Program-made: the position numbers and the translations under genes
The notes under the pieces: model-generated
Told to the model about the DNA's origin: nothing
The model's input: the letters and a program-made list of their open reading frames with translations, nothing else
Databases searched by the model: none
In this document: positions 4,160 through 31,291 of the stretch, piece after piece
How the letters are laid out: every line of letters starts with the position of its first letter
Position numbering within the stretch: the first letter of the stretch is position 1
Assembly: GCF_964204645.1 (NCBI RefSeq)
Contig: NC_134026.1
Location: 30,972,150-31,036,149, forward strand
Origin: Tubulanus polymorphus
Taxonomy: Eukaryota > Animalia > Nemertea
DNA length: 64,000 nt
Reading direction: 5' to 3'

Positions 4160-4310
4160 ATTAAGACCGTTAGATTGGTTATGGAACCAAATTGGTATTG
4201 TTAGGCTGGTCTTAAGTTGTTAGATTGGTTAAAGAACTAAAATGAGCTTAGACTGGTCTTAAGTTGTTAGATTGATTATAGAACTAATAGAACCAAGGTG
4301 GTTTTAGAAG
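4160..4310. repeat. Fragment of dispersed MITE family with internal tandem repeats
   Basis: GACTGGTCTTAAGTTGTTAGATTGGTTA units, also found at ~32520-32790, ~41640-41775, 51738-52062 and ~63219-63420. Confidence 0.7.
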
Positions 4311-4889
4311 ACGGGAATCAAGTCTGAGCCTTGACTATCTAATTGAGTCCAGGCATTTATACAGAGAATTAATAGACTACTGCGACATACAACTACAGAT
4401 ATAAGATTCAGTTCTATGCGTCGCGCAATCTCTCCTCGGTGATATGGAAAGTTCGCGTCAATATTTGGTTAACGGAAACCATCGCAAAATGACATGATCT
4501 TTCCTTCTGTTTTGATAAGTTCTGTCAATAGTCACCAAGATGATCGGCTCAGCGCTGTTCATGAATTACATTATCCGCTGTGCTTATGTGCAAAAAGATA
4601 TCTTTCACCCAGTAAGCCGCTGTGTTCATGTGATCTGAAGCAATTAATTTGAAAGAAATTGCCCTAGGGGGTAGCACTCCCAAAATACAAATACCAGACG
4701 TCGCGTAAGAGGCTTACAGCGAAAAACCTATTCAAATAGTTCTGATGCATTATTTTGCATCCAATTTTTCAAGGTGGTTCATTCAGTTTGTTTTTTAAAT
4801 CTAAAAAAGAAAACATGTCATCCAGTTCCATTGAGTTGTAACCTGTCATTTGAATTAGGGAGTATAAAGTGAGTATGAAGTGATTTGAA

Positions 4890-5060
4890 CTCAGAGTTAA
4901 CTCAACTCACAACTGTGGAACTGGACCATGAGTTCAGAGATAACTCATACTCACAACTGTGGAACTGGATCTTGAGTTCAGAGTTGACTCTAACTCACAA
5001 CTGTGGAACTGGATCTTGAGTTCACAGTTGACTCTAACTCACTACTGTGAACTGGATCCG
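4890..5060. repeat. Tandem repeats of AACTCACAACTGTGGAACTGGA-containing unit
   Basis: About 4 copies of a ~43 bp unit; same motif family at ~32030-32075, ~37480-37570 and ~57770-57872. Confidence 0.7.
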
Positions 5061-5243
5061 GATTTTTAGTTATTTATTGGTCAAACATATTTCTGATGAA
5101 ATCATTGGGAAACTTGAACCCGATCTATTGTAATAAAATGGTTACAACATAGAAAAAGCTGCAATATTTCAAATATTTTTCCGTTACAGATTCCGATCTC
5201 AACATGTGTTTTTAATGAACATATTTTCTATCATATTTTGTAG

Positions 5244-6055
5244 GTGCTTTGTGTCCAAGTTGTTACATACCAGAAATGGCTTTTAAGATATTTTTCTGGC
5301 TGGGATATTGTAACAGTACAATGAACCCTATAATCTACGCCTGTTCGAGTCGCGAATTCAAGCGAGCTTTCAAGCGAATCCTGCGCTGTCAATTTCGGCG
5401 ACGTCCTCGTAAGTTTCTGGATACCGCAGCCGAACCGAGTACATCAACTACCGAGATTTGTCGTTTATCGGTCGCTAATAGCAGCCGACATAAATCGAGT
5501 CCCGATTCGGAACGCGGACCTTTGCGCTGGTCGATGAAAAAGAGTTTCAGTAGCCATTTTCCCGGTAGTCGTAGGTCGTCGTTGGAAGATTCGCCGATTT
5601 TACCGTTAAGGCAAATCCTCGAACGTTCTTCGTCATCGTCGAGAAAACGGACGGGGAACGAAACGCTCAAACTGGACGAGGATGACGTTTATAACGGCGA
5701 TAACTCTGACGACGAGAAACAATCGGATTCGTTGAGTCCATCGAATTCGAAACATACATCGCTTAGTCACGTGAGCACTCCTCCGAGAAGTTTAAACGCT
5801 AGCAATAGCGGTAATTTTAACGGTTTGTGTCCCGGTAAAACCCCTCTTCCCGGCACGGGAGCGGCCGTTAACGGTCGCGTTAAACGTGGTTCCGGCGTCA
5901 TTAATTTCAGCAGTCATAAAATACCCGATATAAAGGTGCATAGTGCGGAAAATTGTTCAAGCGAAGCCAGATCTACTGTCGATGTGTCCTCTGAGAAACA
6001 TGCGGGAATCAGTAATCAGTTGCGGATGCCAAGAGCTAGGAGTCATTACTGGTGA
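5244..6055 (+). CDS. Terminal exon of alpha-1 adrenergic receptor-like aminergic GPCR (ECL3, TM7, helix 8, long Ser-rich tail)
   Basis: Acceptor ttttgtag at 5243; [30 protein letters not shown] resembles ADRA1 TM7 (FWLGYxNSxxNPIIYPCSSxEFKxAF); upstream exon(s) not found in this window. Confidence 0.85.
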
Positions 6056-6914
6056 CACGGTCCGGTCTCCTATCGGTACGGTATGTGACCAGCACTGATT
6101 CTCAGCAGAAACAGCCATTACTGATAATACCGGTCTCCCTGTACCGTCAGACCAGTTCTCAGTACGCCATGAGACCACCACTGATTTCTTGGTAACGGTT
6201 AAATCATTGTTTTGTTGATACGAGACGCGACCAAGATTTGTGTTAACGATATTCATAAAAACAGCGATGAATGTTTTTACGACGCAGAATAATTTCATGA
6301 TAAACACATTGGACCCAGTTTCACGAAAGAATTCGAGTTTGATGCGATTATGTGTGAATAAAAGAGTTTATACACAGGAGATAGTTTCTCAGAAACAAAC
6401 ACCACGATTTATCTATCCACCAGAGCCTGGTCCCAGTTTACTTAAACATTTACGACCATATCCTAATAGTCATACGTGACAATAGACCGGGTTCGAACCC
6501 GGGACACCCCCATTTGAAATAACTGTTTATATATTTTGCGAGATTGAGAATTCATGAACGTTGACAAAATATTTGTACATTTTGTATTCTCTCCACGAAT
6601 GTAAATAACCATGAAATATCGCGTCATTTCAAAGCAAAAAGAGCCAAGAGAAAATGCTACAATGTATTTATCACGTTATTTGACGTGAATATGAATAAAA
6701 CCTCGATTAACCCAATGAGAAAGAGTCGATAAAAAAGAACAGTTGCATAATAATGTTGAGGATATAACATCATATAGAAATCTCAATTGTTTATAATGAA
6801 AAGAATATATCATATATAATATATATATATGTATTAGTAAAATATTTTCAGTAAGTTGTTCGTTCTTTCTTACTGCCATCTCGCGGAGCAGGAGACATCA
6901 AATAATTCGATTTT

Positions 6915-7770
6915 TAGAGAATTATTGTTCAAGAGCTTCAATTCACTGTTCTAAGTTGTTAACTTTTTCACGAAATGTTTCAATGTTTTCTATCAGCGAT
7001 TCGAGGAATTTAACACGATTTTCTAAATCCATTAATTTCTCGCTCAGTGGTTTATTCGACGTTACAGGAGTCAAAGGCTCCTCGGTTGGTGCTGGAGTAG
7101 AGGGCTCCTCGGTTGGTGCTGGAGTAGCGGGCTCCTCGGTTGGTGCTGGAGTAGCGGGCTCCTCGGTTGGTGCTGGAGTAGCGGGGTCCTCGGTTGGTGC
7201 TGGGGTAGAGGGCTCCTCGGTTGGTGCTGGGGTAGAAGGCTCCTCGGTTGGTGCTGGAGTAGCGGGCTACTCGGTTGGTGCTGGGGCAGAGGGCTCCTCG
7301 GTTGGTGCTGGAGTAGAGGGCTCCTCGGTTGGTGCTGGAGTCGAAGGCTCCGCTGTTGGCGGTGTTCGAGTCGCATATCCTCTGATGCAAGGTTCACTAT
7401 CCCGAAAATGGCTACAGTTCATTTTTTCTGGCCATTGAAATCCGAGCGTGTCACAACCATTTCTAGCAAGTTCACAGAGTGATTTACACGGTGGTTCAGA
7501 AGAACAAGGTGGTGCGTACATAGCGCATAGAAACTCCCTTAAATTCGGACTGCATCTCACCTTAACCAACGGAAATAACTGATGTAACTCCAGACCTGCT
7601 TCTTCTTGGTTTTGATGATGAAAACTATTCGGCATTTTTGTTTTATCGTACGACAATCCTACTTTACATAGTGGTATCTGTATACGCTCACAAGTTTCAC
7701 GTCTGTTGATGTAGACACTTTCATTAACACCAAAATAAAACATTAGCATCAAAATCCAAATCAGAGACAT
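6915..7770 (-). pseudogene. Secreted Frizzled-CRD / mucin-repeat / coiled-coil paralog, truncated or pseudogenised
   Basis: Signal peptide and 10-Cys CRD closely matching 61513-62175; GAG>TAG stop at 7267 inside TEEPSTPAP repeats; a second stop (CGA>TGA, ~6943) in the coiled coil; 4-aa deletion (MNRF) in the CRD. Confidence 0.8.
7075..7360 (-). repeat. 27-bp coding minisatellite (TEEPSTPAP), about 10 copies
   Basis: GGCTCCTCGGTTGGTGCTGGAGTAGAG-type unit repeated. Confidence 0.9.
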
Positions 7771-7975
7771 TTTGCGGATCTGATCCGTTCACTGCAGTAC
7801 AGACTAACAACCAATATATACTGAATATATTTTAGCCTAAAAAGTGGTTTACTAACATTTTTTATGTGTGCTTCATGTATATCTATTTGTAGACTCAGGT
7901 CGTGTACAGCCCCTTATCCCCAGAATTTCGTTTGAACACATGTTATCACAGTTAGACACACAATATCCGTGTATG

Positions 7976-10710: not shown

Positions 10711-11052
10711 TTTTAGATTGTTCGAATAAATAAATTCTTGATTTTAAATTCTTTTAATCTGTAGATAGTGGGTTTTAATCTTTGTATCCGTTCACCACGT
10801 TTGAGTGTGGATATCGTACTGTTTCAATGGTGTTTGTATGAGGAAGAAAACCAGTTTACAAAAACACATGAATAAAAACATTAAGTATTTTAGTTGTAGC
10901 TTTTTTGTGTCCGTCGATGTCTTTAACTTCATGTAATGTGGATAAAGTTTAGGGAAACGACACTTAAATGGCAAATAATTAGAATTGTTGAGGGGATCAT
11001 GTGCAACAATTAATATGATCTCTGATGGATAACATCTACATCCACTTCCAGT

Positions 11053-11218
11053 CAGGCTGAGAGGTTTGGAAGGGTTCAGGCTGAGAGGGTTGTCAAGGTT
11101 CAGGCTGAGAGGGTTGGCAAGGTTCAGGCTGAGAGGGTTAGCAAGGTTCAGGCTGAGAGGGTTGACAGGGTTCAGGCTGAGAAGGTTGGCAGGGTTCAGG
11201 CTGAGAGGGTTGACAGGC
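11053..11218. repeat. 24-bp minisatellite, about 7 copies
   Basis: CAGGCTGAGAGGGTTGGCAAGGTT unit. Confidence 0.9.
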
Positions 11219-11679
11219 CGTAGATTGATCTTGTATTAATCTCATCGGTGTTCATCTCTTTTGAGGAGATTCAATTATAAAAGATTCTATCTAATCCGTG
11301 GTCAGTGGGGAATGGACTCTTGCCCAAATTACTGCCCAAAGTCAATTGGTCGATATGAAACAACTACAAACACTTGAACAGGATTTTATTATTAAAAACA
11401 TCAGGTTTAAACCAATATCAAGAGTAAAACCTGCTTTGATGAAAACAAACAGAGCCAGACACTTGATAAATCACAGTAATAAAATCAAGACTAATCAAAT
11501 TAATCAACAACAAATGATAAGATAAGATATATTCAACTAACGAAGTATTAGATCATTAAAATAATTTAATGATAATAAATCCACCAGACATTTGACACTC
11601 TTTATAAAAACATCAGACTTAAACAAATACTATTAAACACAAACTAAACTTTAATAACTTTAATCTATTTTCCATTTTA

Positions 11680-11907
11680 CTTTAAGTGTTACATCATACA
11701 AAAAAGTATTGATACTAGACTCCGCCCAAACATCCGACCCTCTTAATGAAAACTACAGATTAAAGATATTTTTTCGATACAAAGATATTTTTTTCTATAG
11801 AAAGATATATTCTCAATACAAAGATATTTTTTTCAATTAACTTTAAGTGTTACACCACACAAATATGTATTGATACTAGACTCCGCCCAAACATCCGACC
11901 CTCTTAA
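11680..11907. repeat. Direct duplication of ~67 bp
   Basis: CTTTAAGTGTTACA...GTATTGATACTAGACTCCGCCCAAACATCCGACCCTCTTAA at ~11680 and ~11841. Confidence 0.8.
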
Positions 11908-14007
11908 CTACAATTACAACTTACAAAATGTTATAGTGAACAAAGATATTTTCAACTTACTTTAATAACTTTAATTAAATGTTTCATTATACAAATTGAA
12001 TCATTTGATTCACAGATACTACTTAGAATATAGCGTAGTACGCTACAATACGAACAATGTCTCCGATTCAGGAAATACCACAAATCTGATGCGAGAAATT
12101 CAAGATCAAGAAATGACCCTCTTGATCTTTATTAACAATGACAGACTATCTGAATCAAATCATCAATCGAGCATTCTATGATATCAATCATTTATTTTTG
12201 AAGTTGATGGATTTTGTTTAATTGTGTGTTGGATTTTATTTGGTTTAGTGTTTGTTTATCATTAATTGAGTCCATAGAATGCTTCTAAGCGATCGACACA
12301 AAGAGATCCGAGTCACTGCTTACCGTACGTACAGTCCTCAGTTGCCAGAGACTGCTCTTCGATTTTCAACAGAAAGCAGTATTTCATGTATCGGAAAAAC
12401 ACTTCTAACTTATAATCAATTCAATAATTCTCTAACAATATAAGATAATCATACAGTGGAATTTATTTTTCAGCATAATGTTTCAGGTAACAACAATTAA
12501 AAAGTATTGTAGCTACAAACACTAATTCCTTATTAACACGACTCATAAAATACCAAAAACACCGAAATACCCGACTTTGAAAACAGTATAAGAGGAAACT
12601 TGATTGTATTGAAGTCTTGATTATAAAGGAAAACTTGATGAAACTTGATTATATTCCATGAAGTATCCAGCATTCTATCATATCTTAAGTAGTTGGTTTT
12701 TGTATTTTTGTGTTTTCAGTGGTTTGTATTTCAATGTGTATTTAAGTTTTAAGTGTTTGATTGTTTATGTGTAGTTGAGCTGATAGAATGCTGAAATAAC
12801 ATCACGGTCCTCGACCGACCGGAGGCTCGTACACTACAGACGACACACATCCTCAGTCAATAATAAACTGCTCCTCTCTATTTCCGGCAGGGTATTTACC
12901 GAATTGGTATTCTATGAATCGTCAAATGTTACATTATCTATTGAAAACAGTTTAATTAAACCAAGTCGTCCACGTAAAAAACAGTGACTCCAAAAATGAA
13001 GAGTGTATGGTATAACACTTAGCTGGAGACAACCGCAAAGAAAACTGCTGTTTCCTGAATTCTGCGTGCCATCCTACTAAAATCCTCCGCACTAAAACCA
13101 GAGACATTCCTAAACACTAAGTTCACTCTGGAAAGCGCAAGGTAAACAATCTATAACTAATTTAATTCATTTTTTTACATTATTATTATTACTACTTAAA
13201 AAACTTAAGTTTTACATTGTTTTTTTTACATGTTTTTCTACATTAATATTATTGAAACTTGAGAAACTAAGTTTTATATATTTGTTTTTCATGTTTTTCT
13301 ACATTAATATTATTACTACTTGAAAAACTAAGTTTGACATTTTTTTTCAATCAAAAATTATTACAAATTTTTTTTTTTTTCGTTAATTTTCCAGCATCCA
13401 TAAAACAATGAATATTCACATTAAGTGAATGGGAGAGGGGGTTTTAAAGGAAACTTGATCTTTAATCGTTTATTAGGCACATCCTATCGTGCTGCCAACA
13501 CCGGGCTTGTTAGTTTAAAAAAAAATAAAAGGGTTTGTTAGTACGCTTTGCGCTTTGTGCCTAGGATGCTTAAATAAACACTTAAACGATCAAGTAAAAT
13601 ATTGATGAAAGTGAATTGAATAGTTTAAGGGGAGATGTTTTATGAATGAAAGGAAAACTTATTTTGATTTCACTAGAAAAAGATACCAGATGTTGTAAAT
13701 AGGACTCATACATAACACACAAATTCACACACAGATTTACACACAGATTCGTACATGACCAACAAATACACATCAGAATCACACCTACCTTACACCACCT
13801 CCATTTGCATCATACTGCATCTGTTTCATCGTGAATTTCGGGGCCCCTTTTTAGAAATGCGCACTACACTAAACAATTGTTCGCTGATCACTGCTGCTCC
13901 TTCGATATATTGTTCATAAAAACTCTGCTGCTCCTTAGATATATTGTTTGTAAACTCGGCTAATCCCGCATATATTGTTTGTTAACTTTGCTGCTCCTTC
14001 GATTGTT

Positions 14008-14833
14008 GCTGGTTAGTAGACTCTCGGCTGGTGGTAGACTCTCGGCTGGTGGTAGACTCTCGGCTGGTGGTAGACTCTCGGCTGGTGGTAGACTCTCGGC
14101 TGGTAGTAGACTCTCGGCTGGTAGTAGACTCTCGGCTGGTGGTAGACTCTCGGCTGGTAGTAGACTCTCGGCTGGTGGTAGACTCTCGGCTGGTAGTAGA
14201 CTCTCGACTGGTAGTAGACTCTCGGCTGGTGGTAGACTCTCGGCTGGTGGTAGACTCTGGACTGGTGGTAGACTCTCGGCTGGTGGTAGACTCTCGGCTG
14301 GTGGTAGACTCTCGGCTGGTGGTAGACTCTCGGCTGGTAGTAGACTCTCGGCTGGTAGTAGACTCTCGGCTGGTGGTAGACTCTCGGCTGGTAGTAGACT
14401 CTCGGCTGGTGGTAGACTCTCGGCTGGTAGTAGACTCTCGACTGGTGGTAGACTCTCGGCTGGTGGTAGACTCTCGGCTGGTGGTAGACTCTCGGCTGGT
14501 GGTAGACTCTCGGCTGGTGGTAGACTCTCGGCTGGTGGTAGACTCTCGGCTGGTGGTAGACTCTCGGCTGGTGGTAGACTCTCGGCTGGTGGTAGACTCT
14601 CGGCTGGTGGTAGACTCTCGGTTGGTAGTAGACTCTCGACTGGTAGTAGACTCTCGGCTGGTGGTAGACTCTCGGCTGGTGGTAGACTCTCGGCTGGTGG
14701 TAGACTCTCGGCTGGTGGTAGACTCTCGGCTGGTGGTAGACTCTCGGTTGGTAGTAGACTCTCGACTGGTAGTAGACTCTCGGCTGGTGGTAGACTCTCG
14801 GTTGGTGGTAGACTCTCGGCTGGTGGTAGACTC
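14008..14833. repeat. 18-bp minisatellite, about 46 copies
   Basis: GCTGGTGGTAGACTCTCG unit; stop-free in all frames, which explains the overlapping ORFs. Confidence 0.95.
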
Positions 14834-15041
14834 TTGGCTATAGAAAAATGACGATGCAAAATATATCAATAAAATTCGATGAGATATTACTGCTTGGATA
14901 AAACATTTAATCTAATAATGAAATCGAAATTTCTTACCATAGAATTAACTAGAAACCATGACCTTTCTTCAGTCTTATTGTGGTTACACTATTGTCTCTG
15001 CTGCTCCTAAACTGAATTCTGCCATTACTGAACGTCACTGC

Positions 15042-15315
15042 AACTCTGCTAACTATCTGGAACTCTGCTAACTATCTGGAACTCTGCTAACTATCTGGAA
15101 CTCTGCTAACTATCTGGAACTCTGCTAACTATCTGGAACTCTGCTAACTATTTGGAACTCTGCTAACTATCTGGAACTCTGCTAACTATCTGGAACTCTG
15201 CTAACTATCTGGAACTCTGCTAACTATCTGGAACTCTGCTAACTATCTGGAACTCTGCTAACTATCTGGAACTCTGCTAACTATCTGGAACTCTGCTAAC
15301 TATCTGGAACTCTGC
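15042..15315. repeat. 19-bp minisatellite, about 14 copies
   Basis: AACTCTGCTAACTATCTGG unit. Confidence 0.95.
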
Positions 15316-15814
15316 TGGGATTTTCTGATGTCATCATAGCTGCTAAATTCGTCATCAGTTATTGTCTGGTCATCTCATCTCATGGCTTCATTTTGAAACA
15401 TTCAGCTGGAAAGAAATGATATTTTTGAGGTGTACAATCCGTTCGAACATCTTATTATTTTACATGGAGAAGTTAAAATCAGTCCCTGTCGTTTACAATT
15501 GCAATAATTGTATTATTTGATCAGTGATTGTCAATAAACCCCCGATTGATTAGTATTAGTAGCGTTAGTTAATCACTATTTAAGACAGTGATCATTAACG
15601 TAGATTTCTCTGATACAAGATCAGTTAACGTTGATTTTATACAAAGTCCGCAGTGTCTTTAAAAAGACATTGAGATCCTACTGAACCTCATTGTCCGAGG
15701 AGTTTTGATTTTCTTTTGACATTTTTCGGGGCTGTCTATTCTAAGACGATTTTTCTTTGATTAGGCGGGAAAAGGACTAATTGGAGTTTGTTAAGTTGGG
15801 AGCTAATAGAGAGA

Positions 15815-16218
15815 CTGGTAACGCCACCTATTGCTCAGGCCTTTTAGTCTCTGCGCTCTGATAGGAATAGACAGTACTAAAAGGTGGATGTGCGAGTTCT
15901 AGGCGACTGGTAACGCCACCTATCGCTCGTCACCATCCTACCTTTAGCACTGAGAGTTGGGAGCTATAGGAAGGCTGGTAGCGCCACCTATTATTGCTCA
16001 GGCACCATAGTCTCTGCGCACTTACCCGATGCTCTGATCAAAGTTTAATGTATTTTTAGTTTTAGGGGAGTTTTTGAGATCTAAGAGCTATAGGAAGGCT
16101 GGTAGCGCCACCTATTGCTCGGACACCATCATCTCCGCACACTTACCCGAAGCTCTGATTGTAAGGTTTCAGTGATCTTGGGAGAGTTTGAGAGGATGGT
16201 AGCACCACCTATTGGTCA
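15815..16218 (-). promoter_or_regulatory. Cluster of five co-oriented CTCF-like motifs (repeated at ~20586-20989 and ~25405-25808)
   Basis: TGGTA(A/G)CGCCACCTAT(T/C)GCTC x5; reverse complement GCAATAGGTGGCGCTA resembles the CTCF core CCACTAGRTGGCGC. Confidence 0.55.
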
Positions 16219-17112
16219 GGAATGGTCTACTCTTTGTCTCTGATAAGGCTGAATGCGTGGCTACCACAAGTGGCCAAGTGTCAAGTCAAACACAACTCAT
16301 TGTGATAAGTAATTACAGTCTCATGGATGAAACCAACTTCTTATTAATGCATTTCAAGAGGCACAAAATGTGACAGAACACTTTTAAACCAGTGTGCACT
16401 AAATATCAGTAAATCATATGAAAATATCAACTTGTCATCAAAAAGTGAAGCTTTGATTGAAAGAGATCTTGAAATGACTCTTTTTGAAATTGAGATTCCA
16501 CAAACAAAGATTGAGCCTTCAGTAAGAAGACATTTCAAATATTGTCAAAACTCTTGATATTGAGAATCAAGTAACAAAGATTCACTGACAACACTTGATA
16601 TATCAATATCTACTAATTGATGATATATCAAAATACTGATAGAAGTGACACAGTAATTAGCAACTAACATTCATAATTTCACATCAAAGGTTTCTCAAAT
16701 TCTTTTTCATGGATGATATTATCAGCGACTGGCTCTGAAATTCTCGATATCCTACAGTTTTTTTCAGTCAATAAGAAAAACACAAAAATTCTAATGAGTT
16801 TTTTCCGTCAAATAGAAAAAACAGAACTGAAGTTTTTCCGTCAAAATGAAAAACTCAATGTTAAGTGATACAGTAATTTTGTATTTCAAGTTTCAGATGA
16901 AATAGCGACAACCATTATTCATGCAGGTTTCATCTCTCAAATATTATTAGTCTGGTTTTCTGAATTCAAACTTAAGGAGTAGCGCAGCAGCAGCAGCAGC
17001 AGCACCAAACAAACATAGAAATCACCAAATAATTTTGAGAAATTCTTTCACATTTTAACTGATGACATTCAGAATACAATACATGTGATTAAAACAAATA
17101 TAATGATTATGC

Positions 17113-17718
17113 AAATGAGATTGGAGAGAGTGCCACAAATGAATCGGGACTTTCATCTAATACGAGCACGCTGAAAACAGAAACATGTGTTAAATTGAAT
17201 GAGGCAAACCATAATGTATAAGACACGAATGAGTTCGCGGTGGTCCTTTTTGACCGGTTAAACTGACTTAACAAAGAAAGAATGGTGAAATGTTGAATTG
17301 TAAATTTGTACTCGGAGAAGTCCCAAAACGACACCTCATCACTCATTTATTTTATCTCTAACCTAATCTAAACCGGTGTAAATATTGAACTCAACAGAAC
17401 TTCACATAAAATGAGATTGAATCATTAAGATGAAATTTGAAATATACATCAAAATTACGATATTTTGATAAAGTGCCATTGAGTGTATAAAGGACTTCAG
17501 TCTAATACGAGTACAAACAAATTAACGGTAAAAAATATGTGAAAAATATGAATGAAGGTAAATTGATTGAAATCGAACCATTTATGCAGAGCATTACATA
17601 AAATAACTACTACATAAATAAGTTCACACTAGTGGCCTTGAATTAGACCAGATTGAAACTGATAAATCTTTAGAATTGTACTCGGACAAGTCCTGTATTA
17701 ATTTCAAAAAAGGCACTT
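17113..17718 (-). ncRNA. Two diverged copies of a putative ~240-nt structured RNA element (also in units 2 and 3)
   Basis: Shared nested stems GTGCC, GGACTT/AAGTCC, CGAGYAC/GTACTCG and an inner GGYC/GACC hairpin; mismatches resolve as G-U pairs on the minus strand. Confidence 0.45.
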
Positions 17719-20160
17719 CATTTTTTTCTAGTTCCTTATCATTCTATTGACACTGGTATCACTGATATTTATTATCAGCAAAAATATATTAAACTAAATT
17801 TGAAGTGAAGTTTCAAAGCGTCAAAGCTTTTACTCACTACACTTTATTTCCAGGGATTTCTACTTTTGATTGTTTGGTGCAAATTTAATCAATTAGAGTA
17901 TTTTAAATAACCAGACATTTTTTCATTTTGACTGAAACCTGCTCCAAGAAGGTTGCGCAGATTTGTATATAATTGATAATAAACAGATTAAATTTCTACT
18001 TAATTTCAATAATTCTATAAGATATTCATATCTATATAAATATCAATATTCAATATCGAAATTAATTTTTTCGACTTTACTTCAAATTGAATTCACTTAC
18101 GGAATTTCATTTTTCAAAACAATGAATTCGAAGGTAAGAACTTCCCTTGATTTTCTGAGAAACAATAGTTTTGTATCGAAATGATATTTCATGAACAAAG
18201 TGAGAAGGAAATTCAATCGATTCCTTTCAAAATAAAGATATAACTAACAAAGATGGAATGACGATTCTTTTACGATCAATTTTCACAAGATTCAGACGAT
18301 TGACTAAGATTAAAATGAGATACTTCAATTGATTCAATTCAACTTTTTAACTTCACTTCTAAAAGCATTTGATCATCATCGATATTGAAATATTGATGTA
18401 TAAAAATATTGGATTTATTGTGAATCCTTTGCAAAATAGAGATTTCAGTAACTAAGATGGAATGATGATTTTTCTTCAGAAGATCAAGATTTCACTATAA
18501 ATTCTGTAAGTTGACCTTAATTTGCCTAACACTTACTGGGAATCCAGAACTTTCAAACAAGTAAAACTAAATATCAACTCCACATCAAAATATGAGGCTT
18601 CATTAAAAGAGATCTCGATGATTCTTTTTTAAATTGAGATTGAGAAATCGGTAAGAAAATATTTGGAATATTGCAAATACTTAAGCGATTACGATTTCAA
18701 GTAAAAAAATACTGAACACCCCGAGATTTTACACATTTCTACAGAGACAATTAACAAATTAATTAAAAGAATTTATCTTTAAGAATTTATTTCAAATTGA
18801 GGAATAGGAACTTTGACGATAAAATGATTAAAACAGAGCTTGCGGAGATGATCTTATTACACGTAAAGGCACAAGACAAGCGTGCTCACCACTGAACCGA
18901 TAGAACTTAAGTCTAATTAGTCAGTGATTAAACAGCGCTTGATTTCGTTATACAAAATACTATGAGAAACTAGTAACTATTTTAAACAGTTTCTAGTTTC
19001 TATAATACACCTTTCACAGAGCTCACAGAGACAATTTGAACTTTGTTAGTAGGATTTAGGGGGGCTAGCGATCGAACTAATGGTTATACACCTTCATATA
19101 ATCTTTTCAGTCAAACAAACTGTAACAACTAATATTCTATATTATATTCTCTCCTATATTGAGTCACATTATTTCTCTATCACAGAACTTTATAAAGATA
19201 AACGTTTAATACTTTTTGGGCTAGTGAGACTATGTTTAGTTAGTACATCTAGCCAAGTGAACTAGCGTCCACGCGACTAGTGACTAAACAGCTTATAAAA
19301 TACTATAACGAGACAACTTATTTTCAGACGCTGCAAGCGTGCTCAGCATTAGACCTAGAGAACAAGTCAACTAGGCTAAAATATACACCTTTTAACAGTT
19401 ACACATTTCAGAACAGATACTGAATTCATAACAGCTTACAATGATTTAAGGCAAGCTCATTAAACCACTCAACATTTACAAGATTATTACTGATCAATAA
19501 CTATATCAAATTACTGCTTGGCAGATGTAATAAGAATTTACTAACACTTTTACAAAGCAAGTTCTTTCTATCTTAACACACGAGTAAAGCTAATATACGT
19601 TATATTAATTCCAGCACAGAGCTAACAGAGACAAGATCTTTTTTTGAACGATTTTGTTAGCAAAATTTTGGCCCAATAGAGGTTTTGTTATGAGGCTGAT
19701 AAAGAGAAAAGTCGTTTTACGATCTTTTCCTTTAAGTTTTCTTATGTGAAGTAATGATTGTGAACTCGTGCGGTGCAGACACAGAACATCGTTTAACGAT
19801 TTTGTGTCATTTGGATGATTTTTTTTCTTTTCACTTTCAGTTAGATATTAAGCGTTAGAAATCTAAGTTTTTTGAGAGGAGCTTTTAAAAAAGCTTTTCG
19901 ACACCTCATTCTTAGTGTATTTTTACACATTCTACTTTTGGGTTTTGTAAACCCTGTAGCGCTCCACTCTATCCTTTCTCTCCCGCAATAGAAAAATAAA
20001 TCAAACTTAGCTTTTTTATATTGCGACAATCATCAGTGTGGATCAACTGCGAGGTAGTGTGGATCAACTGGTGGTTCCACGATGCATCTGTTGGATTCTT
20101 CTGGTAGTATTTATGAACATGACTGTGCTAATTCCGCAGCATTACTTATCGTCTAGATTT

Positions 20161-23100
20161 ATTTTGAAACATTCAGCTGGAAAGAAATGATATTTTTGAG
20201 GTGTACAATCCGTTCGAACATCTTATTATTTTACATGGAGAAGTTAAAATCCGTCCTTGTCGTTTACAATTGCAATAATTGTATTATTTGATCAGTGATT
20301 GTCAATAAACCCCCGATTGATTAGTATTAGTAGCGTTAGTTAATCACTATTTAACACAGTGATCATTAACGTAGATTTCTCTGATACAAGATCAGTTAAC
20401 GTTGATTTTATACAAAGTCCGCAGTGTCTTTAAAAAGACATTGAGATCCTACTGAACCTCATTGTCCGAGGAGTTTTGATTTTCTTTTGACATTTTTCGG
20501 GGCTGTCTATTCTAAGACGATTTTTCTTTGATTAGGCGGGAAAAGGACTAATTGGAGTTTGTTAAGTTGGGAGCTAATAGAGAGACTGGTAACGCCACCT
20601 ATTGCTCAGGCCTTTTAGTCTCTGCGCTCTGATAGGAATAGACAGTACTAAAAGGTGGATGTGCGAGTTCTAGGCGACTGGTAACGCCACCTATCGCTCG
20701 TCACCATCCTACCTTTAGCACTGAGAGTTGGGAGCTATAGGAAGGCTGGTAGCGCCACCTATAATTGCTCAGGCACCATAGTCTCTGCGCACTTACCTGA
20801 TGCTCTGATCAAAGTTTAATGTATTTTTAGTTTTAGGGGAGTTTTTGAAATCTAAGAGCTATAGGAAGGCTGGTAGCGCCACCTATTGCTCGGACACCAT
20901 CATCTCCGCACACTTACCCAAAGCTCTGATTGTAAGGTTTCAGTGATTTTGGGAGAGTTTGAGAGGATGGTAGCGCCACCTATTGCTCAGGAATGGTCTA
21001 CTCTTCGTCCCTGATAAGGCTGAATGCGTGGCTACCACAAGTGGCCAAGTGTCAAGTCAAACACAACTCATTGTGATAAGTAATTACAGTCTCATGGATG
21101 AAACCAACTTCTTATTAATGCATTTCAAGAGGCACAAAATGTGACAGAACACTTTTAAACCAGTGTGCACTAAATATCAGTAAATCATATGAAAATATCA
21201 ACTTGTCATCAAAAAGTGAAGCTTTGATTGAAAGAGATCTTGAAATGACTCTTTTTGAAATTGAGATTCCACAAACAAAGATTGAGCCTTCAGTAAGAAG
21301 ACATTTCAAATATCGTCAAAACTCTTGATATTGAGAATCTAGTGACAAAGATTCACTGACTGCACGTGATATATCAATATCTACTAATTGACGATATATC
21401 AAAATACTGATAGAAGTGACACAGTAATTAAACTAACATTCATAATTTCACATCAAAAGTTTCTCAAATTCTTTTTCATGGATGATATTATCAGAGGACT
21501 GGCTCTGAAATTCTCGATATCCTACAGTGTTTTTCAGTCAAAAAGAAAAACACAAAAATTCTAATGAGTTTTTTCCGTCAAATTGAAAAAAACAGAATTG
21601 AAGTTTTTCCGTCAAAATGAAAAACTCAATGTTAAGTGATACAGTAATTTTGTATTTCAAGTTTCAGATGAAATAGCGACAACCATCATTCATGCAGGTT
21701 TCATCTCTCAAATATTATTAGTCTGGTTTTCTGAATTCAAACTTAAGGAGTAGCGCAGCAGCAGCAGCAGCAGCAGCAGCAAACAAACATAGAAATCACC
21801 AAATAATTTTGAGAAACTCTTTCACATTTTAACTGATGACATTCAGAATACAATACATGTGATTAAAACAAATATAATGATTATGCAAATGAGAGTGGAG
21901 AGAGTGCCACAAATGAATCGGGACTTTCATCTAATACGAGCACGCTGAAAACAGAAACATGTATTAAATTGAATGAGGCAAACCATTATGTATAAGACAT
22001 GAATGAGTTCGCGGTGGTCCTTTTTGACCGGTTAAACTGACTTAACAAATAAAGAATGGTGAAATGTTGAATTGTAAATTTGTACTCGGAGAAGTCCCAA
22101 AACGACACCTCACCACTCATTTATTTTATCTCTAACCTAATGCTATTAATAGAACTCCACACAAAAAAACATAAAACAGCCTTAAATAAATGATATTGAA
22201 TATGAATTTTACCTCAAAATACCTCAAAATTACTATATTTTGAAAAAGTGCCATTGAATGTTGAAGGACTTCAGTCTAATACGAGTACAAACAAATTAAC
22301 GGTAAAAATATATTCAAAATTTGAATGAAGGTAAATTGATTGAAATCGAACCATTTATGCAGAGCATTACATAAAATAACTACTACATAAATAAGTTCAC
22401 ACTAGTGGCCTTGAATTAGACAAGATTGAAACTGATAAATCTTTAGAATTGTACTCGGACAAGTCCTGTATTTATTTCAAAAAAGGCACTTCATTTTTTT
22501 CTAGTTCCTTATCATTCTATTGACACTGGTATCACTGATATTTATTATCAGCAAAAATATATTAAACTAAATTTGAAGTGAAGTTTCAAAGCGTCAAAGC
22601 TTTTACTCACTACACTTTATTTCAAGGGATTTCTACTTTTGATTGTTTGGTGCAAATTTAATCAATTAGAGTATTTTAAATAACCAGACATTTTTTCATT
22701 TTGACTGAAACCTGCTCCAAGAAGGTTGCGCAGATTTGTATTAAATTGATAATAAACTGATCAAATTTCTACTTAATGTCAATAATTCTATAAGATATTC
22801 ATATCTATATAAATATCAATATTCAATATCGATATTAATTTTTTTGACTTTACTTCAAATTGAATTCATTTACGGAATTTCATTTTTCAAAACAATGAAT
22901 TCGAAGGTAAGAACTTCCCTTGATTTTCTGAGAAACAATAGTTTTGTATCGAAATGATATTTCATGAACAAAGTGAGAAGGAAATTCAATCAATTCCTTT
23001 CAAAATAAAGATATAACTAACAAAGATGGAATGACGATTCTTTTACGATCAATTTTCACAAGATTCAGACGATTGACTAAGATTATATTTACATTCGAAA

Positions 23101-24980
23101 TTACATGAACAAAATGAGAAACTTCAATTGATTCAATTCAACTTTTTAACTTCACTTCTAAAAGCATTTGATCATCATCGATATTGAAATATTGATGTAT
23201 AAAAATATTGGATTCATTGTGAATCTTTTGCAAAATAGAGATTTCAGTAACTAAGATGGAATGGTGAGTCTTCTTTAGAAGATCAAGATTTCACTATAAA
23301 TTCTCTAAGTTGATCTTAATTTACCTAACACTTACTGGGGAATCCAGAACTTTCAAACAAGTAAAACTAAATATCAACTCCACATCAAAATATGAGGCTT
23401 CATTAAAAGAGATCTCGATGATTCTTTTTTAAATTGAGATTGAGAAATCGGTAAGAAAATATTTGGAATATTGCAAATACTTAAGCGATTACGATTTCAA
23501 GTAAAAAAATACTGAACACCCCGAGATTTTACACATTTCTACAGAGACAATTAACAAATTAATTAAAAGAATTTATTATTAAGAATTTATTTCAAACTGA
23601 GGAATAGGAACTTTGACGATAAAATGATTAAAACAGAGCTCGCGGAGATGATCTTATTACATGTAATGGCACAAGACAAGCGTGCTCACCACTGAACCGA
23701 TAGAACTTAAGTCTAATTAGTCAGTGATTAAACAGCGCTTGATTTCGTTATACAAAATACTATGAGAAACTAGTAACTATTTTAAACAGTTTCTAGTTTC
23801 TATAATACACCTTTAACAGAGCTCACAGAGACAATTTGAACTTTGTTAGTAGGATTTAGGGGGGCTAGCGATCGAACTAATGGTTATACACCTTCATATA
23901 ATCTTTTCAGTCAAACAAACTGTAACAACTAATATTCTATATTATATTCTCTCCTATATTGAGTCACATTATTTCTCTATCACAGAACTTTATAAAGATG
24001 ATGTTTAATACTTTTGGGCTAGTGAGACTATGTTTAGTTAGTACATCTAGCCAAGTGAACTAGCGTCCACGCGACTAGTGACTAAACAGCTTATAAAATA
24101 CTATAACGAGACAACTTATTTTCAGACGCTGCAAGCGTGCTCAGCATTAGACCTAGAGAACAAGTCAACTAGGCTAAAATATACACCTTTTAACAGTTAC
24201 ACATTTCAGAACAGATACTGAATTCAAAACAACTTACAATGATTTAAGGCAAGCTCATTAAACCACTCAACATTTACAAGATTATTACTGATCAATAACT
24301 ATATCAAATTACTGCTTGGCAGATGTAATAAGAATTTACTAACACTTTTACAAAGCAAGTTCTTTCTATCTTAACACATGAGTAAAGCTAATATACGTTA
24401 TATTAATTCCAGCACAGAGCTAACAGAGACAAGATCTTTTTTTGAACGATTTTGTTAGCAAAATTTTGGCCCAATAGAGGTTTTGTTATGAGGCGATAAA
24501 GAGAAAAGTCGTTTTACGATCTTTTCCTTTAAGTTTTCTTATGTGAAGTAATGATTGTGAACTCGTGCGGTGCAGACACAGAACATCGTTTAACGATTTT
24601 GTGTCATTTGGATGATTTTTTTTCTTTTCACTTTCAGTTAGATATTAAGCGTTAGAAATCTAAGTTTTTTGAGAGGAGCTTTTAAAAAAGCTTTTCGACA
24701 CCTCATTCTTAGTGTATTTTTACACATTCTACTTTTGGGTTTTGTAAACCCTGTAGCGCTCCACTCTATCCTTTCTCTCCCGCAATAGAAAAATAAATCA
24801 AACTTAGCTTTTTTATATTGCGACAATCATCAGTGTGGATCAACTGCGAGGTAGTGTGGATCAACTGGTGGTTCCACGATGCATCTGTTGGATTCTTCTG
24901 GTAGTATTTATGAACATGACTGTGCTAATTCTCCGTAGAATCTTCCGTTGGTCTCGCAGCATTAGTTATCGTCTAGATTT
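20161..24980. repeat. ~4.8 kb tandem macro-repeat, unit 2
   Basis: Highly similar to units 1 and 3, with scattered substitutions and indels. Confidence 0.95.
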
Positions 24981-27900
24981 ATTTTGAAACATTCAGCTGG
25001 AAAGAAATGATATTTTTGAGGTGTACAATCCGTTCGAACATCTTATAATTTTACATGGAGAAGTTAAAATCAGTCTCTGTCATTTACAATTGCAATAATT
25101 GTATTATTTGATCAGTGATTGTCAATAAACCCCCGATTGATTAGTATTAGTAGCGTTAGTTAATCACTATTTAACACAGTGATCATTAACGTAGATTTCT
25201 CTGATACAAGATCAGTTAACGTTGATTTTATACAAAGTCCGCAGTGTCTTTAAAAAGACATTGAGATCCTACTGAACCTCATTGTCCGAGGAGTTTTGAT
25301 TTTCTTTTGACATTTTTCGGGGCTGTCTATTCTAAGACGATTTTCTTTGATTAGGCGGGAAAAGGACTAATTGGAGTTTGTTAAATTGGGAGCTAATAGA
25401 GAGACTGGTAACGCCACCTATTGCTCAGGCCTTTTAGTCTCTGCGCTCTGATAGGAATAGACAGTACTAAAAGGTGGATGTGCGAGTTCTAGGCGACTGG
25501 TAACGCCACCTATCGCTCGTCACCATCCTACCTTTAGCACTGAGAGTTGGGAGCTATAGGAAGGCTGGTAGCGCCACCTATTATTGCTCAGGCACCATAG
25601 TCTCTGCGCACTTACCTGATGCTCTGATCAAAGTTTAATGTATTTTTAGTTTTAGGGGAGTTTTTGAAATCTAAGAGCTATAGGAAGGCTGGTAGCGCCA
25701 CCTATTGCTCGGACACCATCATCTCCGCACACTTACCCAAAGCTCTGATTGTAAGGTTTCAGTGATTTTGGGAGAGTTTGAGAGGATGGTAGCACCACCT
25801 ATTGCTGAGGAATGGTCTACTCTTCGTCTCTGATAAGGCTGAATGCGTGGCTACCACAAGTGGCCAAGTGTCAAGTCAAACACAACTCATTGTGATAAGT
25901 AATTACAGTCTCATGGATGAAACCAACTTCTTATTAATGCATTTCAAGAGGCACAAAATGTGACAGAACACTTTTAAACCAGTGTGCACTAAATATCAGT
26001 AAATCATATGAAAATATCAACTTGTCATCAAAAAGTGAAGCTTTGATTGAAAGAGATCTTGAAATGACTCTTTTTGAAATTGAGATTCCACAAACAAAGA
26101 TTGAGCCTTCAGTAAGACGACATTTCAAATATCGTCAAAACTCTTGATATTGAGAATCTAGTGACAAAGATTCACTGACTGCACGTGATATATCAATATC
26201 TACTAATTGACGATATATCAAAATACTGATAGAAGTGACACAGTAATTAAACTAACATTCATAATTTCACATCAAAAGTTTCTCAAATTCTTTTTCATGG
26301 ATGATATTATCAGAGGACTGGCTCTGAAATTCTCGATATCCTACAGTGTTTTTCAGTCAAAAAGAAAAACACAAAAATTCTAATGAGTTTTTTCCGTCAA
26401 ATAGAAAAAACAGAATTGAAGTTTTTCCGTCAAAATGAAAAACTCAATGTTAAGTGATACAGTAATTTTGTATTTCAAGTTTCAGATGAAATAGCGACAA
26501 CCATCATTCATGCAGGTTTCATCTCTCAAATATTATTAGTCTGGTTTTCTGAATTCAAACTTAAGGAGTAGCGCAGGAGTAGCGCAGCAGCAGCGGCAGC
26601 AGCACCAAACAAACATAGAAATCACCAAATAATTTTGAGAAACTCTTTCACATTTTAACTGATGACATTCAGAATACAATACATGTGATTAAAACAAATA
26701 TAATGATTATGCAAATGAGATTGGAGAGAGTGCCACAAATGAATCGGGACTTTCATCTAATACGAGCACGCTGAAAACAGAAACATGTGTTAAATTGAAT
26801 GAGGCAAACCATTATGTATAAGACATGAATGAGTTCGCGGTGGTCCTTTTTGACCGGTTAAACTGACTTAACAAATAAAGAATGGTGAAATGTTGAATTG
26901 TAAATTTGTACTCGGAGAAGTCCCAAAACGACACCTCACCACTCATTTATTGTATCTCTAACCTAATGCTATTAATAGAACTGTACACAAAAAAAACATA
27001 AAACAGCCTTAAATAAATGATATTGAATATGAATTTTACCTCAAAATACCTCAAATTACTATATTTTGAAAAAGTGCCATTAAATGTTGAAGGACTTCAG
27101 TCTAATACGAGTACAAACAAATTAACGGTAAAAATATATTCAAAATTTGAATGAAGGTAAATTGATTGAAATCGAACCATTTATGCAGAGCATTACATAA
27201 AATAACTACTACATAAATAAGTTCACACTAGTGGCCTTGAATTAGACCAGATTGAAACTGATAAATCTTTAGAATTGTACTCGGACAAGTCCTGTATTTA
27301 TTTCAAAAAAGGCACTTCATTTTTTTCTAGTTCCTTATCATTCTATTGACACTGGTATCACTGATATTTATTATCAGCAAAAATATATTAAACTGAATTT
27401 GAAGTGAAGTTTCAAAGCGTCAAAGCTTTTACTCACTACACTTTATTTCAAGGGATTTCTACTTTTGATTGTTTGGTGCAAATTTAATCAATTAGAGTAT
27501 TTTAGATAACCAGACATTTTTTCATTTTGACTGAAACCTGCTCCAAGAAGGTTGCGCAGATTTGTATTAAATTGATAATAAACTGATCAAATTTCTACTT
27601 AATGTCAATAATTCTATAAGATATTCATATCTATATAAATATCAATATTCAATATCGAAATTAATTTTTTTGACTTTACTTCAAATTGAATTCATTTACG
27701 GAATTTCATTTTTCAAAACAATGAATTCGAAGGTAAGAACTTCCCTTGATTTTCTGAGAAACAATAGTTTTGTATCGAAATGATATTTCATGAACAAAGT
27801 GAGAAGGAAATTCAATCAATTCCTTTCAAAATAAAGATATAACTAACAAAGATGGAATGACGATTCTTTTACGATCAATTTTCACAAGATTCAGACGATT

Positions 27901-29661
27901 GACTAAGATTATATTTACATTCGAAATTACATGAACAAAATGAGATACTTCAATTGATTCAATTCAACTTTTTAACTTCACTTCTAAAAGCATTTGATCA
28001 TCATCGATATTGAAATATTGATGTATAAAAATATTGGATTCATTGTGAATCTTTTGCAAAATAGAGATTTCAGTAACTAAGATGGAATGGTGAGTCTTCT
28101 TTAGAAGATCAAGATTTCACTATAAATTCTCTAAGTTGATCTTAATTTACCTAACACTTACTGGGGAATCCAGAACTTTCAAACAAGTAAAACTAAATAT
28201 CAACTCCACATCAAAATATGAGGCTTCATTAAAAGAGATCTCGATGATTCTTTTTTAAATTGAGATTGAGAAATCGGTAAGAAAATATTTGGAATATTGC
28301 AAATACTTAAGCGATTACGATTTCAAGTAAAAAAATACTTAACACCCCGAGATTTTACACATTTCTACAGAGACAATTAACAAATTAATTAAAAGAATTT
28401 ATCATTAAGAATTTATTTCAAATTGAGGAATAGGAACTTTGACGATAAAATGATTAAAACAGAGCTCGCGGAGATGATCTTATTACACGTACTGGCACAA
28501 GACAAGCGTGCTCACCACTGAACCGATAGAACTTAAGTCTAATTAGTCAGTGATTAAACAGCGCTTGATTTCGTTATACAAAATACTATGAGAAACTAGT
28601 AACTATTTTAAACAGTTTCTAGTTTCTATAATACACCTTTCACAGAGCTCACAGAGACAATTTGAACTTTGTTAGTAGGATTTAGGGGGGCTAGCGATCG
28701 AACTAATGGTTATACACCTTCATATAATCTTTTCAGTCAAACAAACTGTAACAACTAATATTCTATATTATATTCTCTCCTATATTGAGTCACATTATTT
28801 CTCTATCACAGAACTTTATAAAGATAAACGTTTAATACTTTTTGGGCTAGTGAGACTATGTTTAGTTAGTACATCTAGCCAAGTGAACTAGCGTCCACGC
28901 GACTAGTGACTAAACAGCTTATAAAATACTATAACGAGACAACTTATTTTCAGACGCTGCAAGCGTGCTCAGCATTAGACCTAGAGAACAAGTCAACTAG
29001 GCTAAAATATACACCTTTTAACAGTTACACATTTCAGAACAGATACTGAATTCAAAACAACTTACAATGATTTAAGGCAAGCTCATTAAACCACTCAACA
29101 TTTACAAGAATATTACTGATCAATAACTATATTAAATTACTGCTTGGCAGATGTAATAAGAATTTACTAACACTTTTACAAAGCAAGTTCTTTCTATCTT
29201 AACACACGAATAAAGCTAATATACGTTATATTAATTCCAGCACAGAGCTAACAGAGACAAGATCTTTTTTTGAACGATTTTGTTAGCAAAATTTTGGCCC
29301 AATAGAGGTTTTGTTATGAGGCTGATAAAGAGAAAAGTCGTTTTACGATCTTTTCCTTTAAGTTTTCTTATGTGAAGTAATGATTGTGAACTCGTGCGGT
29401 GCAGACACAGAACATCGTTTAACGATTTTGTGTCATTTGGATGATTTTTTTTCTTTTCACTTTCAGTTAGATATTAAGCGTTAGAAATCTAAGTTTTTTG
29501 AGAGGAGCTTTTAAAAAAGCTTTTCGACACCTCATTCTTAGTGTATTTTTACACATTCTATTTTTGGGTTTTGTAAACCCTGTAGCGCTCCACTCTCTCC
29601 TTTCTCTCCCGCAATAGAAAAATAAATCAAACTTAGCTTTTTTATATTGCGACAATCATCA
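24981..29661. repeat. ~4.8 kb tandem macro-repeat, unit 3
   Basis: Highly similar to units 1 and 2; similarity ends at GACAATCATCA ~29661. Confidence 0.95.
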
Positions 29662-29679
29662 CTGGGAGGTAGTGCTCTC

Positions 29680-29962
29680 AGTAGTTCTAGTAGTAGTAGT
29701 TCATTTTCTAGGAGTTCATCTTTTAGTTCTAATAGTTCATTGGACCCTAGTAGTGCCGTAGTTACTAGTAGTAGTTCATTTTCTAGGAGTTCATCTTTTA
29801 GTTCTAATAGTTCATTGGACCCTAGTAGTGACGTAGTTACTAGTAGTAGTTCATCTTCTAGGAGTTCATCTTCTAGTTAGAATAGTTCATTGGACCCTAG
29901 TAGTGCTGTGGTTTCTAGTAGTAGTTCATCTTCTAGTAGTTCTAGTAATTAGTTCATCTTCT
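29680..29962. repeat. ~75-bp minisatellite built of TAG/TTC sub-repeats, about 3.5 copies
   Basis: AGTAGTTCATTTTCTAGGAGTTCATC...TTGGACCCTAGTAGTG recurs at ~75 bp spacing. Confidence 0.85.
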
Positions 29963-31291
29963 CGATGTTCTAGGTCGTGGCTGGTCGACAACTTGGTTCA
30001 TCTTGCATTTGATGCATTCTTCTGACGGTCTCCATAAAAAAACACTTTCTGCGGCTGGAAATAAAGAAAATAGTAGATAATTTCTTGGAATCAGAATGTT
30101 AACGTTTACAATATGAAGCAAAGAAAAAAATATAGTTCAATCTCTGCGAGTAGAAACATGGATTATTACAACAAAATGAAAATAAATTGGGAATACAAAA
30201 AATTACGATTTATGAAAATGATTCTATGAAATTGTTATCAAAGTGTTCACAACAACTTTATTAGATGCAATGTTACTGGATATAAGACAATTACAATCAA
30301 TCCATAATTTAGAATTCAAACTTTCTCACCATGAAAACGGATGTTCTTGTTCTTGTTTTATTTAATTCAGCCCAGCACATCAGGACAGCATACAGGCAGC
30401 ACGGTGGCTCAGACATGAGTGCGGCGATTTAGACAGGGCGCCAACTGCTCTCAAACCTATTGACGCGTTACCGGATTAGGTTGGGAGACTATAGGCAACG
30501 GGCTGGCATTTTTACAGTGACCAATCAGAGAGAGCATCGTCCTTGAATAGATTCACCGCGCGAGGTCGAGGTTGACTCGTTCCGCTCTGGCCGACTCGAA
30601 ACCCTTCACCGCCGCCCGTTCCGCTAATAAACACCGGACTCGAACAGACCCTTCCACATTCATAGTGTATTTCATTATTACGATAGAAAGAATTAATCAA
30701 ATCTTAGAGATCTTAAAATCTAATTCTTAAAGTGGCCCGCCCGTCTCTCACTCGTGACAAAAAAGCATTTTTTCAACTGGATGTGGTTTAGACATTTTAA
30801 AACCCGATTTTCAATTAACTCAGATTTAAGACTGCACTTGGAATCAAGCCTCCAATCGGCTCCGAGAGGCAATATTATATCTCAGACAGTAGCGAGAGAG
30901 TCTGACTGATGTCATTTCGAATTCAAATTCTGGTGTCATCTCTGAATCCTCAAAGTCCCTGACTCGTTGATTCGTGATCAAACTCAATTAGATTCACTCT
31001 CTTATAGTCCCGAGAGGTCTCGGAGCCCGCGCCTCCTCAAAATTGAGAAAATTTTGAAAATTTGCCTGCTCAAATGGCATATTGATACCGGACCCATACG
31101 AAACTAGAAAAATATGGAAATTGTATCGACGGCGTAATCGATTCATTTTAAAAATAATATAGATCAATCTTTCGGACAAATCAGCTGATGTAAAATAAGT
31201 CTCAGTGGGGCTCGAATCGCCAAAAGTTTGTACAGGGCTGTCGAGACTGTGATTAAGAAATAACCGATTCAATATTCAATTCAATTCAATA

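Follow-up and report, generated by a model that had tools for sequence, protein, structure and literature searches.

The ~20-bp motifs that recur in the 64-kb stretch of DNA analyzed here (the window) are likely sites of the type that CTCF recognizes in this genome, and they form predicted CTCF-binding clusters inside the repeated cassette of a seven-copy, probably non-coding gene. We lean towards the explanation that these clusters serve the chromatin of the gene that carries them. Judging from sequence comparison, at least some of the sites in the window are probably bound by CTCF.

The motif array and its match to CTCF recognition sequences

With the pattern TGGTARCGCCACCTATYGCTC and up to three mismatches, 14 matches were found in the window, all of them on the plus strand, and none in 100 shuffled sequences. 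A fifteenth copy, at 20747, is an exact match to the 16-mer and carries a 3-nt insertion like those in the copies at 15976 and 25566. In the first cluster the motifs start at 15816, 15908, 15976, 16100 and 16197, at spacings of 92, 68, 124 and 97 bp. A first, sequence-only reading of this DNA had described a ~20-bp motif recurring five times at 70-125 bp, and this is confirmed, with 15 copies in one orientation where shuffling gives none; the recurrence of the cluster, placed by that reading near 20586 and 25405, was likewise recovered:

15816..16217, minus strand: cluster 1, five co-oriented predicted CTCF-type sites in modules of ~70-125 bp; the minus strand reads GAGCAATAGGTGGCGYTACCA; p 3e-9 to 2e-6
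20587..20988, minus strand: cluster 2, five predicted CTCF-type sites, from pattern, 16-mer and matrix matches
25406..25807, minus strand: cluster 3, five predicted CTCF-type sites, from pattern and matrix matches

Since the clusters sit in three tandem units, the fifteen sites are five modules in triplicate, one set per macro-unit. The full YAGRKGGCGC core is present in only 7 of the 15 sites, and six have a GGCGTT variant. In two sites T replaces C at one of the fixed core positions, and three have lost the C at -3 through insertion. The 5' CC half of the vertebrate motif is absent, with G at -4 in most sites. A 7-mer inside the motif resembles a miR-137 seed site, and was dismissed as chance.

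The same core is strongly over-represented in the genome as a whole. There are 4337 genome-wide matches to YAGRKGGCGCT versus 550 for the reversed control, 2166 versus 49 when C at -3 is added, and 5917 versus 56 for the GGCGTT variant, which amounts to an 8- to 100-fold enrichment depending on the variant; mobile repeats supply much of this excess. The core is accompanied by C at +12 in 1360 of the 4337 matches and in 62 of the 550 control matches. Only 769 of the 2166 genomic sites have the second C that the vertebrate motif shows at its 5' end, so the imperfect 5' end that had been noted in comparison with the bilaterian CTCF core is real, yet usual in this genome. It is also no objection to the assignment, because the invertebrate CTCF motif is reported in a preprint (bioRxiv 10.64898/2026.10.19.759930) to be without the vertebrate 5' part (5' CC) and to have a 3' C.

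For a count matrix, 102 distinct sites were collected from 20 stretches of 10 kb each (200 kb) on contig C1, all without family copies; this matrix replaced an unseeded EM matrix, which had drifted into purine-rich low complexity. Outside the seed its columns are C(-3) 0.61, A(-2) 0.47, A/C(-1), R(+11) and C(+12) 0.50. With this matrix, which derives from the genome's own sites and is partly circular (the seed dictates eight of its core columns, and only stretches containing YAGRKGGCGCT were chosen for training), all 15 window sites reach p<4e-6, and 86 of the 97 family sites reach p<1e-6. The commonest site, at 23.3 bits, outscores more than 90% of the training sites. At p<2e-5 the whole 64-kb window has 21 matrix matches, of which 15 are the array sites.

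One CTCF locus was found in the genome (C3:3429104-3432129) with a degenerate pattern built from a CTCF peptide. The best PDB match of its exons is human CTCF (E 3e-67 and 4e-61), and the best among named proteins are arthropod CTCFs. Its residues equivalent to R339, K365, Q418 and R448, which bioRxiv 2024.01.11.575070 describes as contacting DNA directly, are all retained (4 of the 4 base-contacting residues checked). At other positions the helix of finger 6 departs from the human one (QSNSLKAH here, QSGTMKMH in human), and the YDF motif is present; KTYQR was not found in the CTCF of this genome.

Conservation of cores and spacers

Among the modules of one unit the 11-bp core is 0.91 identical in the window (10 pairs), 0.93 on C6 (28 pairs) and 1.00 on C8 (10 pairs), while the module flanks are 0.66-0.77 identical (in unit 1, 0.66 upstream and 0.70 downstream of the core) against a shuffled gapped baseline of 0.63; this within-unit comparison is biased because the modules were located by their core. 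Comparison of aligned units is free of such selection. Between the window unit and that of C6, differences were found at 5 of 74 core positions and 57 of 361 positions in the rest of the array (p 0.045), and between the window unit and that of C8 at 3 of 75 and 60 of 338 positions, respectively (p 0.0013). In close paralogues the gap is small (11/594 in the core versus 137/4269 in the spacers), and gene conversion among them may be the source of their uniformity. That the spacers are far more diverged than the motif is thus borne out by alignment, and as the cores are much more conserved than the spacers, the array is not a product of plain minisatellite decay.

Information across the modules peaks at -1..+14, and module conservation reaches +13..+17, past the edge of the matrix. 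This outer conservation and a 12-bp hairpin round the core are left unexplained by CTCF binding; in the outer modules the core is kept and the hairpin lost. The array is also not the best conserved part of the unit, as three islands (below) are conserved above it. Taken together, the genome-wide enrichment, the matrix, the CTCF gene and the conservation of the core point to a protein-binding array of predicted CTCF type, and to that extent the sequence-only reading stands; its further proposal of a strong insulator or loop anchor is not supported.

The 4.7-kb unit and its seven-locus family

The clusters belong to larger tandem units:

15387..20038, no strand assigned: macro-unit 1, 4.7 kb, one of 18 in the genome
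20158..24835, no strand assigned: macro-unit 2, from repeat comparison
24978..29664, no strand assigned: macro-unit 3, from repeat comparison

These three units are 98.0-99.1% identical to each other and are separated by spacers of 119-142 bp. The unit is present 18 times at seven loci on six chromosomes: C1 has two loci (3 units and 1 unit), C2, which holds the window, has 3 units, C3 has 4, C5 has 1, and C6 and C8 have 3 each. Units within one locus are 95-99% alike across the family, and those of C6 and C8 are 77-80% identical to the units in the window. Each of the 18 units contains 4-8 sites, 97 altogether. All 80 exact matches to the 16-mer lie inside the seven loci, as do 89 of the 100 matches to a looser 15-mer. 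The family occupies six of the twelve chromosome-size contigs, and in all seven loci the distance to a chromosome end is 0.5-6 Mb (p 0.018 when combined, in a post hoc test).

Beyond their units the loci, each ~11-25 kb in size, have ~4.5 kb on the left and ~1 kb on the right in common, and the outer ends of these flanks are ragged; therefore the duplicated thing was a gene-like locus and not a transposon. A transposable element is ruled out by these ragged ends and by the lack of shared sharp termini, terminal repeats or a transposase domain. The sequences show a nested history of duplication. A ~100-bp module with a single site was copied in tandem to 4-8 modules, the 4.7-kb unit together with its short spacer was multiplied to 1-4 copies, and the complete locus of ~11-25 kb, including the promoter block, was duplicated to seven places on six chromosomes. 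Contigs of sequencing runs X1-X3, which may derive from the source sample, span the unit-to-unit junction; uneven depth of X2 and X3 over the unit was left out as uninterpretable. A 32-mer of the best conserved island gave no matches to metagenome contigs.

Other repeats were seen alongside the family. A retroelement of ~6 kb is inserted in the 3' flank of the C3 copy; its long frames overlap, and one of them encodes reverse transcriptase and RNase H. In the window a 47-48-bp tandem repeat family occupies 32564-32735, 4201-4287, 51764-52012 and 63259-63379; it is very high-copy, because its contig depth is thousands of times that of single-copy sequence.

The predicted host gene

Signals kept among the paralogous loci outline a gene on the minus strand:

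30440..30575, minus strand: promoter-like block with putative promoter function, kept in 7 of 7 loci; CCAAT box at 30521
30055..30329, minus strand: predicted first intron; donor ATG/GTGAG in all seven loci, acceptor in six of them
29665..30054, minus strand: predicted second exon; 75-bp repeat; no reading frame common to paralogues
20039..20157 and 24836..24977, minus strand: inter-unit spacers, candidate repeated non-coding exon, from splice signals
10822..15386, minus strand: flank shared by the family on its 3' side, with additional donor/acceptor pairs and tandem repeats that resemble exons

At the window locus the promoter-like block stands head-to-head with SNRNP27. It is the C1:26 Mb copy that has lost the acceptor of the first intron, by deletion. 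TTTCCAG-type acceptors precede the second exon and also stand at each unit's end, where TTTCTTTCCAG (at 20177, also at 15406 and 24997) would lead into the inter-unit spacer. Over the copies, the acceptors and the majority of donors are conserved. The repeats of the 3' flank comprise an 18-mer at 14016-14839 and a 19-mer at 15038-15316. The right end of the unit reads AAAAAG-CTAAGT or -ATAAGT, with no GT in any copy inspected, and the exon model is incomplete because this end has no usable GT donor. Donor look-alikes with C or A for G at +1 are found at 20003-20010, 24800 and 29629.

There is no open reading frame of at least 90 aa within the macro-units, Pfam gave no match in any of the 56 locus frames scanned (the 18-mer array at 13900-15300 was outside the scan), and paralogues do not agree in the short frames that their predicted exons contain. 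Run X4 is probably RNA, because it contains GT-AG joints for SNRNP27 and MRM3. Over the unit it consists of low-depth unspliced contigs with no predicted-exon joint among those listed, and such contigs cannot show absence. We think that the host is probably a transcribed non-coding gene, likely a lncRNA and possibly a pri-miRNA cluster.

Several elements of the unit apart from the array have been kept among its copies:

15515..15645, no strand assigned: island 1, where conservation within the unit is highest; 3/131 differences from a copy that differs at 733/2901 positions elsewhere
17100..17330, no strand assigned: island 2; 16/231 differences; ATGCAAAT at 17109, which we take to be an octamer, kept in 14 of 18 units
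19766..19815, no strand assigned: island 3, a conserved short inverted repeat; 1/49 differences
18877..18941, minus strand: candidate pre-miRNA-like hairpin of ~60 nt, family a, from its fold and its copies across the family

Between loci of 78% identity these islands stand far above the remainder of the unit in conservation. Island 1 folds weakly on the minus strand (z -2.4). The minus strand at 19856-19900 resembles the histone 3' stem-loop, with 20.9 bits (E 0.029) against a gathering score of 34 and thus below threshold, and this segment is itself duplicated in the C3 copy and in one C1 copy.

Hairpins related to family a are found on the minus strand at ~19233-19290 and ~19335-19385, and on C6 there are up to five tandem copies per unit. 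Over 20 copies of family a 97% of cells are paired, with covariation that is matched or beaten by 29 of 500 shuffles; the a+b+c apical stem has 21 double-change cells versus 8.1 (0 of 500 shuffles), compensatory changes between subfamilies that come from only two pairs. Under strict filters, an earlier loose scan having been too permissive, the density of hairpins is slightly above control (20 per five units on the minus strand versus 20 per eight control 5-kb strands). Rfam gave no match at gathering score in the 64-kb window and none at E<=5 in three paralogous stretches, and in unit 1 there are four sub-threshold matches. These comparisons lend modest support to the ~60-nt hairpin family as candidate pre-miRNAs.

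Alternative explanations

The clusters could be passengers. In that case a module with a chance CTCF-type site, derived perhaps from a mobile element, would have been multiplied and held uniform by gene conversion, so that CTCF may bind while nothing depends on the binding. This is in accordance with the abundance of mobile repeats with the same core, one of which has ATAGGTGGCGCTAC in common with the array, with the likeness of units within one locus, and with CpG decay, which strikes the core. We nevertheless regard it as unlikely, since the core is kept at 0.91-1.00 while its flanks are near the shuffled baseline, the core differs less than the spacer between distant loci, 4-8 sites were retained in every unit of the family, and the family module has no similarity to the 154-bp element of this genome.

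That element is a dispersed non-coding repeat of ~1.28 kb (on C1, e.g. 9302500-9305800), in which 4-5 canonical CTCF-type sites of one orientation follow each other every 154 bp. The repeat was present at 8 of the 8 places inspected, is unrelated to the family module, terminates in a short inverted repeat and CTAGT, and is presumably Helitron/Helentron-like. Most of the GGCGTT-variant matches, among those listed, are arranged in runs at 154-bp spacing, and the element likely accounts for most of the 5917 CNNYAGRKGGCGTT matches. A second repeat, ~1.56 kb long and often tandem (C1:15652000-15661999; 3473-6590 therein), has two divergent CTCF-type sites ~400 bp apart, one of them with 14 bases in common with the window motif.

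Another explanation puts the function in RNA: the module would be a minus-strand hairpin or short intron (a miR-451-like or mirtron-like precursor, or a protein-bound loop), and its match to CTCF incidental. Most modules do have the 12-bp hairpin round the core, and module 2 of the window locus forms an 81-nt, 32-bp hairpin (z -8.2). GG/GTAAGT stands upstream in 18/18 and 17/18 units and YAG downstream, giving GT-AG frames of 52-75 nt in 47 of the 97 modules, with the inner modules framed by GG/GTAAGT and CCTATAG; the conserved block is 21-22 nt long, and realistic pre-miRNA hairpins are present elsewhere in the 4.7-kb unit. However, 49 distinct modules (alignment A1, made after removal of three non-family rows, window 35339, L021:309 and L035:1789, from an initial 52) show no covariation (0.115 versus 0.115 shuffled, with 276 of 500 shuffles as high), their consensus fold has only -2.6 kcal/mol, and the conserved part of the hairpin is its loop. 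The long hairpin of module 2 is not retained on C6 and C8, the core occurs without the hairpin in outer modules, and Rfam gave nothing at gathering score. A mirtron is ruled out, as the excised intron-like pieces lack an end-to-end hairpin (z <=-2 in 3 of 34). An RNA-level element is therefore rather improbable in our view, and we regard the module hairpin and splice-like frames as relics of the ancestral module, which was possibly an exon plus a short intron.

The sequence-only reading had explained the array as a strong insulator or loop anchor between a GPCR region and a housekeeping block, which would have evolved to part the two. The window does have GPCR frames to the left of the array and SNRNP27 and MRM3 to its right, its matrix matches are concentrated in the array, two other copies of the family are also flanked by GPCR-like frames, and DXZ4 is described in PMC6985041 as having sites of one polarity together with boundary activity. 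The cassette, however, recurs at six other loci with unrelated flanks, and the GPCRs beside two of those copies are either 22-23% identical to those of the window or unrelated to them. Comparable four-site co-oriented arrays are widespread in the genome, and its CTCF is without KTYQR. According to bioRxiv 10.64898/2026.10.19.759930, invertebrate CTCF reportedly does not build TADs by loop extrusion and is no prominent orientation-dependent loop-extrusion barrier, and echinoderm boundaries are reported in PMC13317027 to have no motif orientation bias. Because the cassette occurs elsewhere, such arrays are common and invertebrate CTCF is reported not to be a prominent orientation-dependent barrier, the local-boundary reading is unsupported; a GPCR/housekeeping boundary is unlikely, and an anchor evolved for that separation quite improbable. 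Insulation of the fly type is still conceivable, because CTCF and Su(Hw) are given as ancestral arthropod insulators in PMC4208683.

The same neighborhood includes three related single-exon frames that encode only a Frizzled CRD (7267-7788, minus; 60481-61059, plus; 61504-62175, plus). They have a signal-peptide-like start and Pro/Thr repeats, and lie in inverted orientation 53 kb apart.

Proposed role and comparison with known systems

The explanation we lean towards is that of CTCF-binding clusters which serve the chromatin of their own, probably non-coding, host gene and would not form a boundary for its neighbors. Fingers 3-7 of CTCF would read the C-NN-YAGRKGGCGYT-N-C core. A nucleosome takes up 147 bp and the sites are 68-124 bp apart, so that there is no room for a nucleosome between them and each cluster would consequently form a single protein-occupied open patch of ~450 bp, which a conserved 3' splice site follows at a distance of 400-830 bp. 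When bound, the clusters may keep each copy of the host gene open or shielded at whatever place it has landed. That they matter for the host non-coding gene is, in our judgement, only somewhat more probable than the opposite. We find it very doubtful that the family is an invertebrate counterpart of FIRRE/DXZ4, in which CTCF clusters of a miRNA-bearing non-coding family would gather the copies of six chromosomes into a co-expression hub.

The role of CTCF beyond vertebrates and flies is still an open question, and the family offers a built-in comparison for it, with 97 near-optimal sites in 18 clusters, a varying number of sites (4-8) and units (1-4), and seven neighborhoods. It makes it possible to ask whether clustered co-oriented sites insulate, loop or merely open chromatin. 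The results also suggest that a multi-copy non-coding gene, with candidate microRNAs, has so far gone undescribed, and that a mobile element has spread CTCF-type sites by the thousand.

The individual sites resemble invertebrate (Drosophila-type) CTCF sites in the AGRKGGCG core, the weak 5' part, the consecutive arrangement and a 3' C, which may correspond to +9 or +12 here. Unlike homotypic CTCF clusters, the sites here come from tandem duplication of one module, multiplied by the macro-repeat. Non-autonomous rolling-circle elements (DINE-1/Helentron) are dispersed repeats with internal arrays, a description that fits the ~1.3-kb element of this genome; the family locus differs from them in its seven copies, ragged ends, promoter block and introns. 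With C19MC, whose layout of repeated non-coding exons and hairpin-bearing introns is described in PMC6346411, the family would share repeated short non-coding exons (candidates here) and repeated introns with related hairpins, whereas the candidate hairpins here have no Rfam family and the 4.7-kb units carry CTCF-type clusters and are dispersed over chromosomes.

The closest layout is that of DXZ4, FIRRE and ICCE, described as CTCF-rich X-linked tandem repeats (PMC6985041, PMC6125249 and PMC4820808): a large tandem repeat that is dense in CTCF motifs of a single polarity and belongs to a non-coding gene or accompanies one, with the motifs conserved and the surrounding sequence drifting. The likeness is one of layout only, without any sequence relation. 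Those are single mammalian X-linked loci that take part in inactive-X superloops, while here there are 1-4 units per locus at seven paralogous loci on six chromosomes, and the arthropod-like CTCF of this animal is probably no loop-extrusion barrier. In the literature searched, whose coverage is incomplete, no CTCF-clustered macrosatellite was met in a multi-copy non-coding arthropod gene. Clusters of CTCF sites, and macrosatellites rich in such sites, are both of known kinds, and what is new is their arrangement in a dispersed seven-locus invertebrate family with candidate microRNAs.
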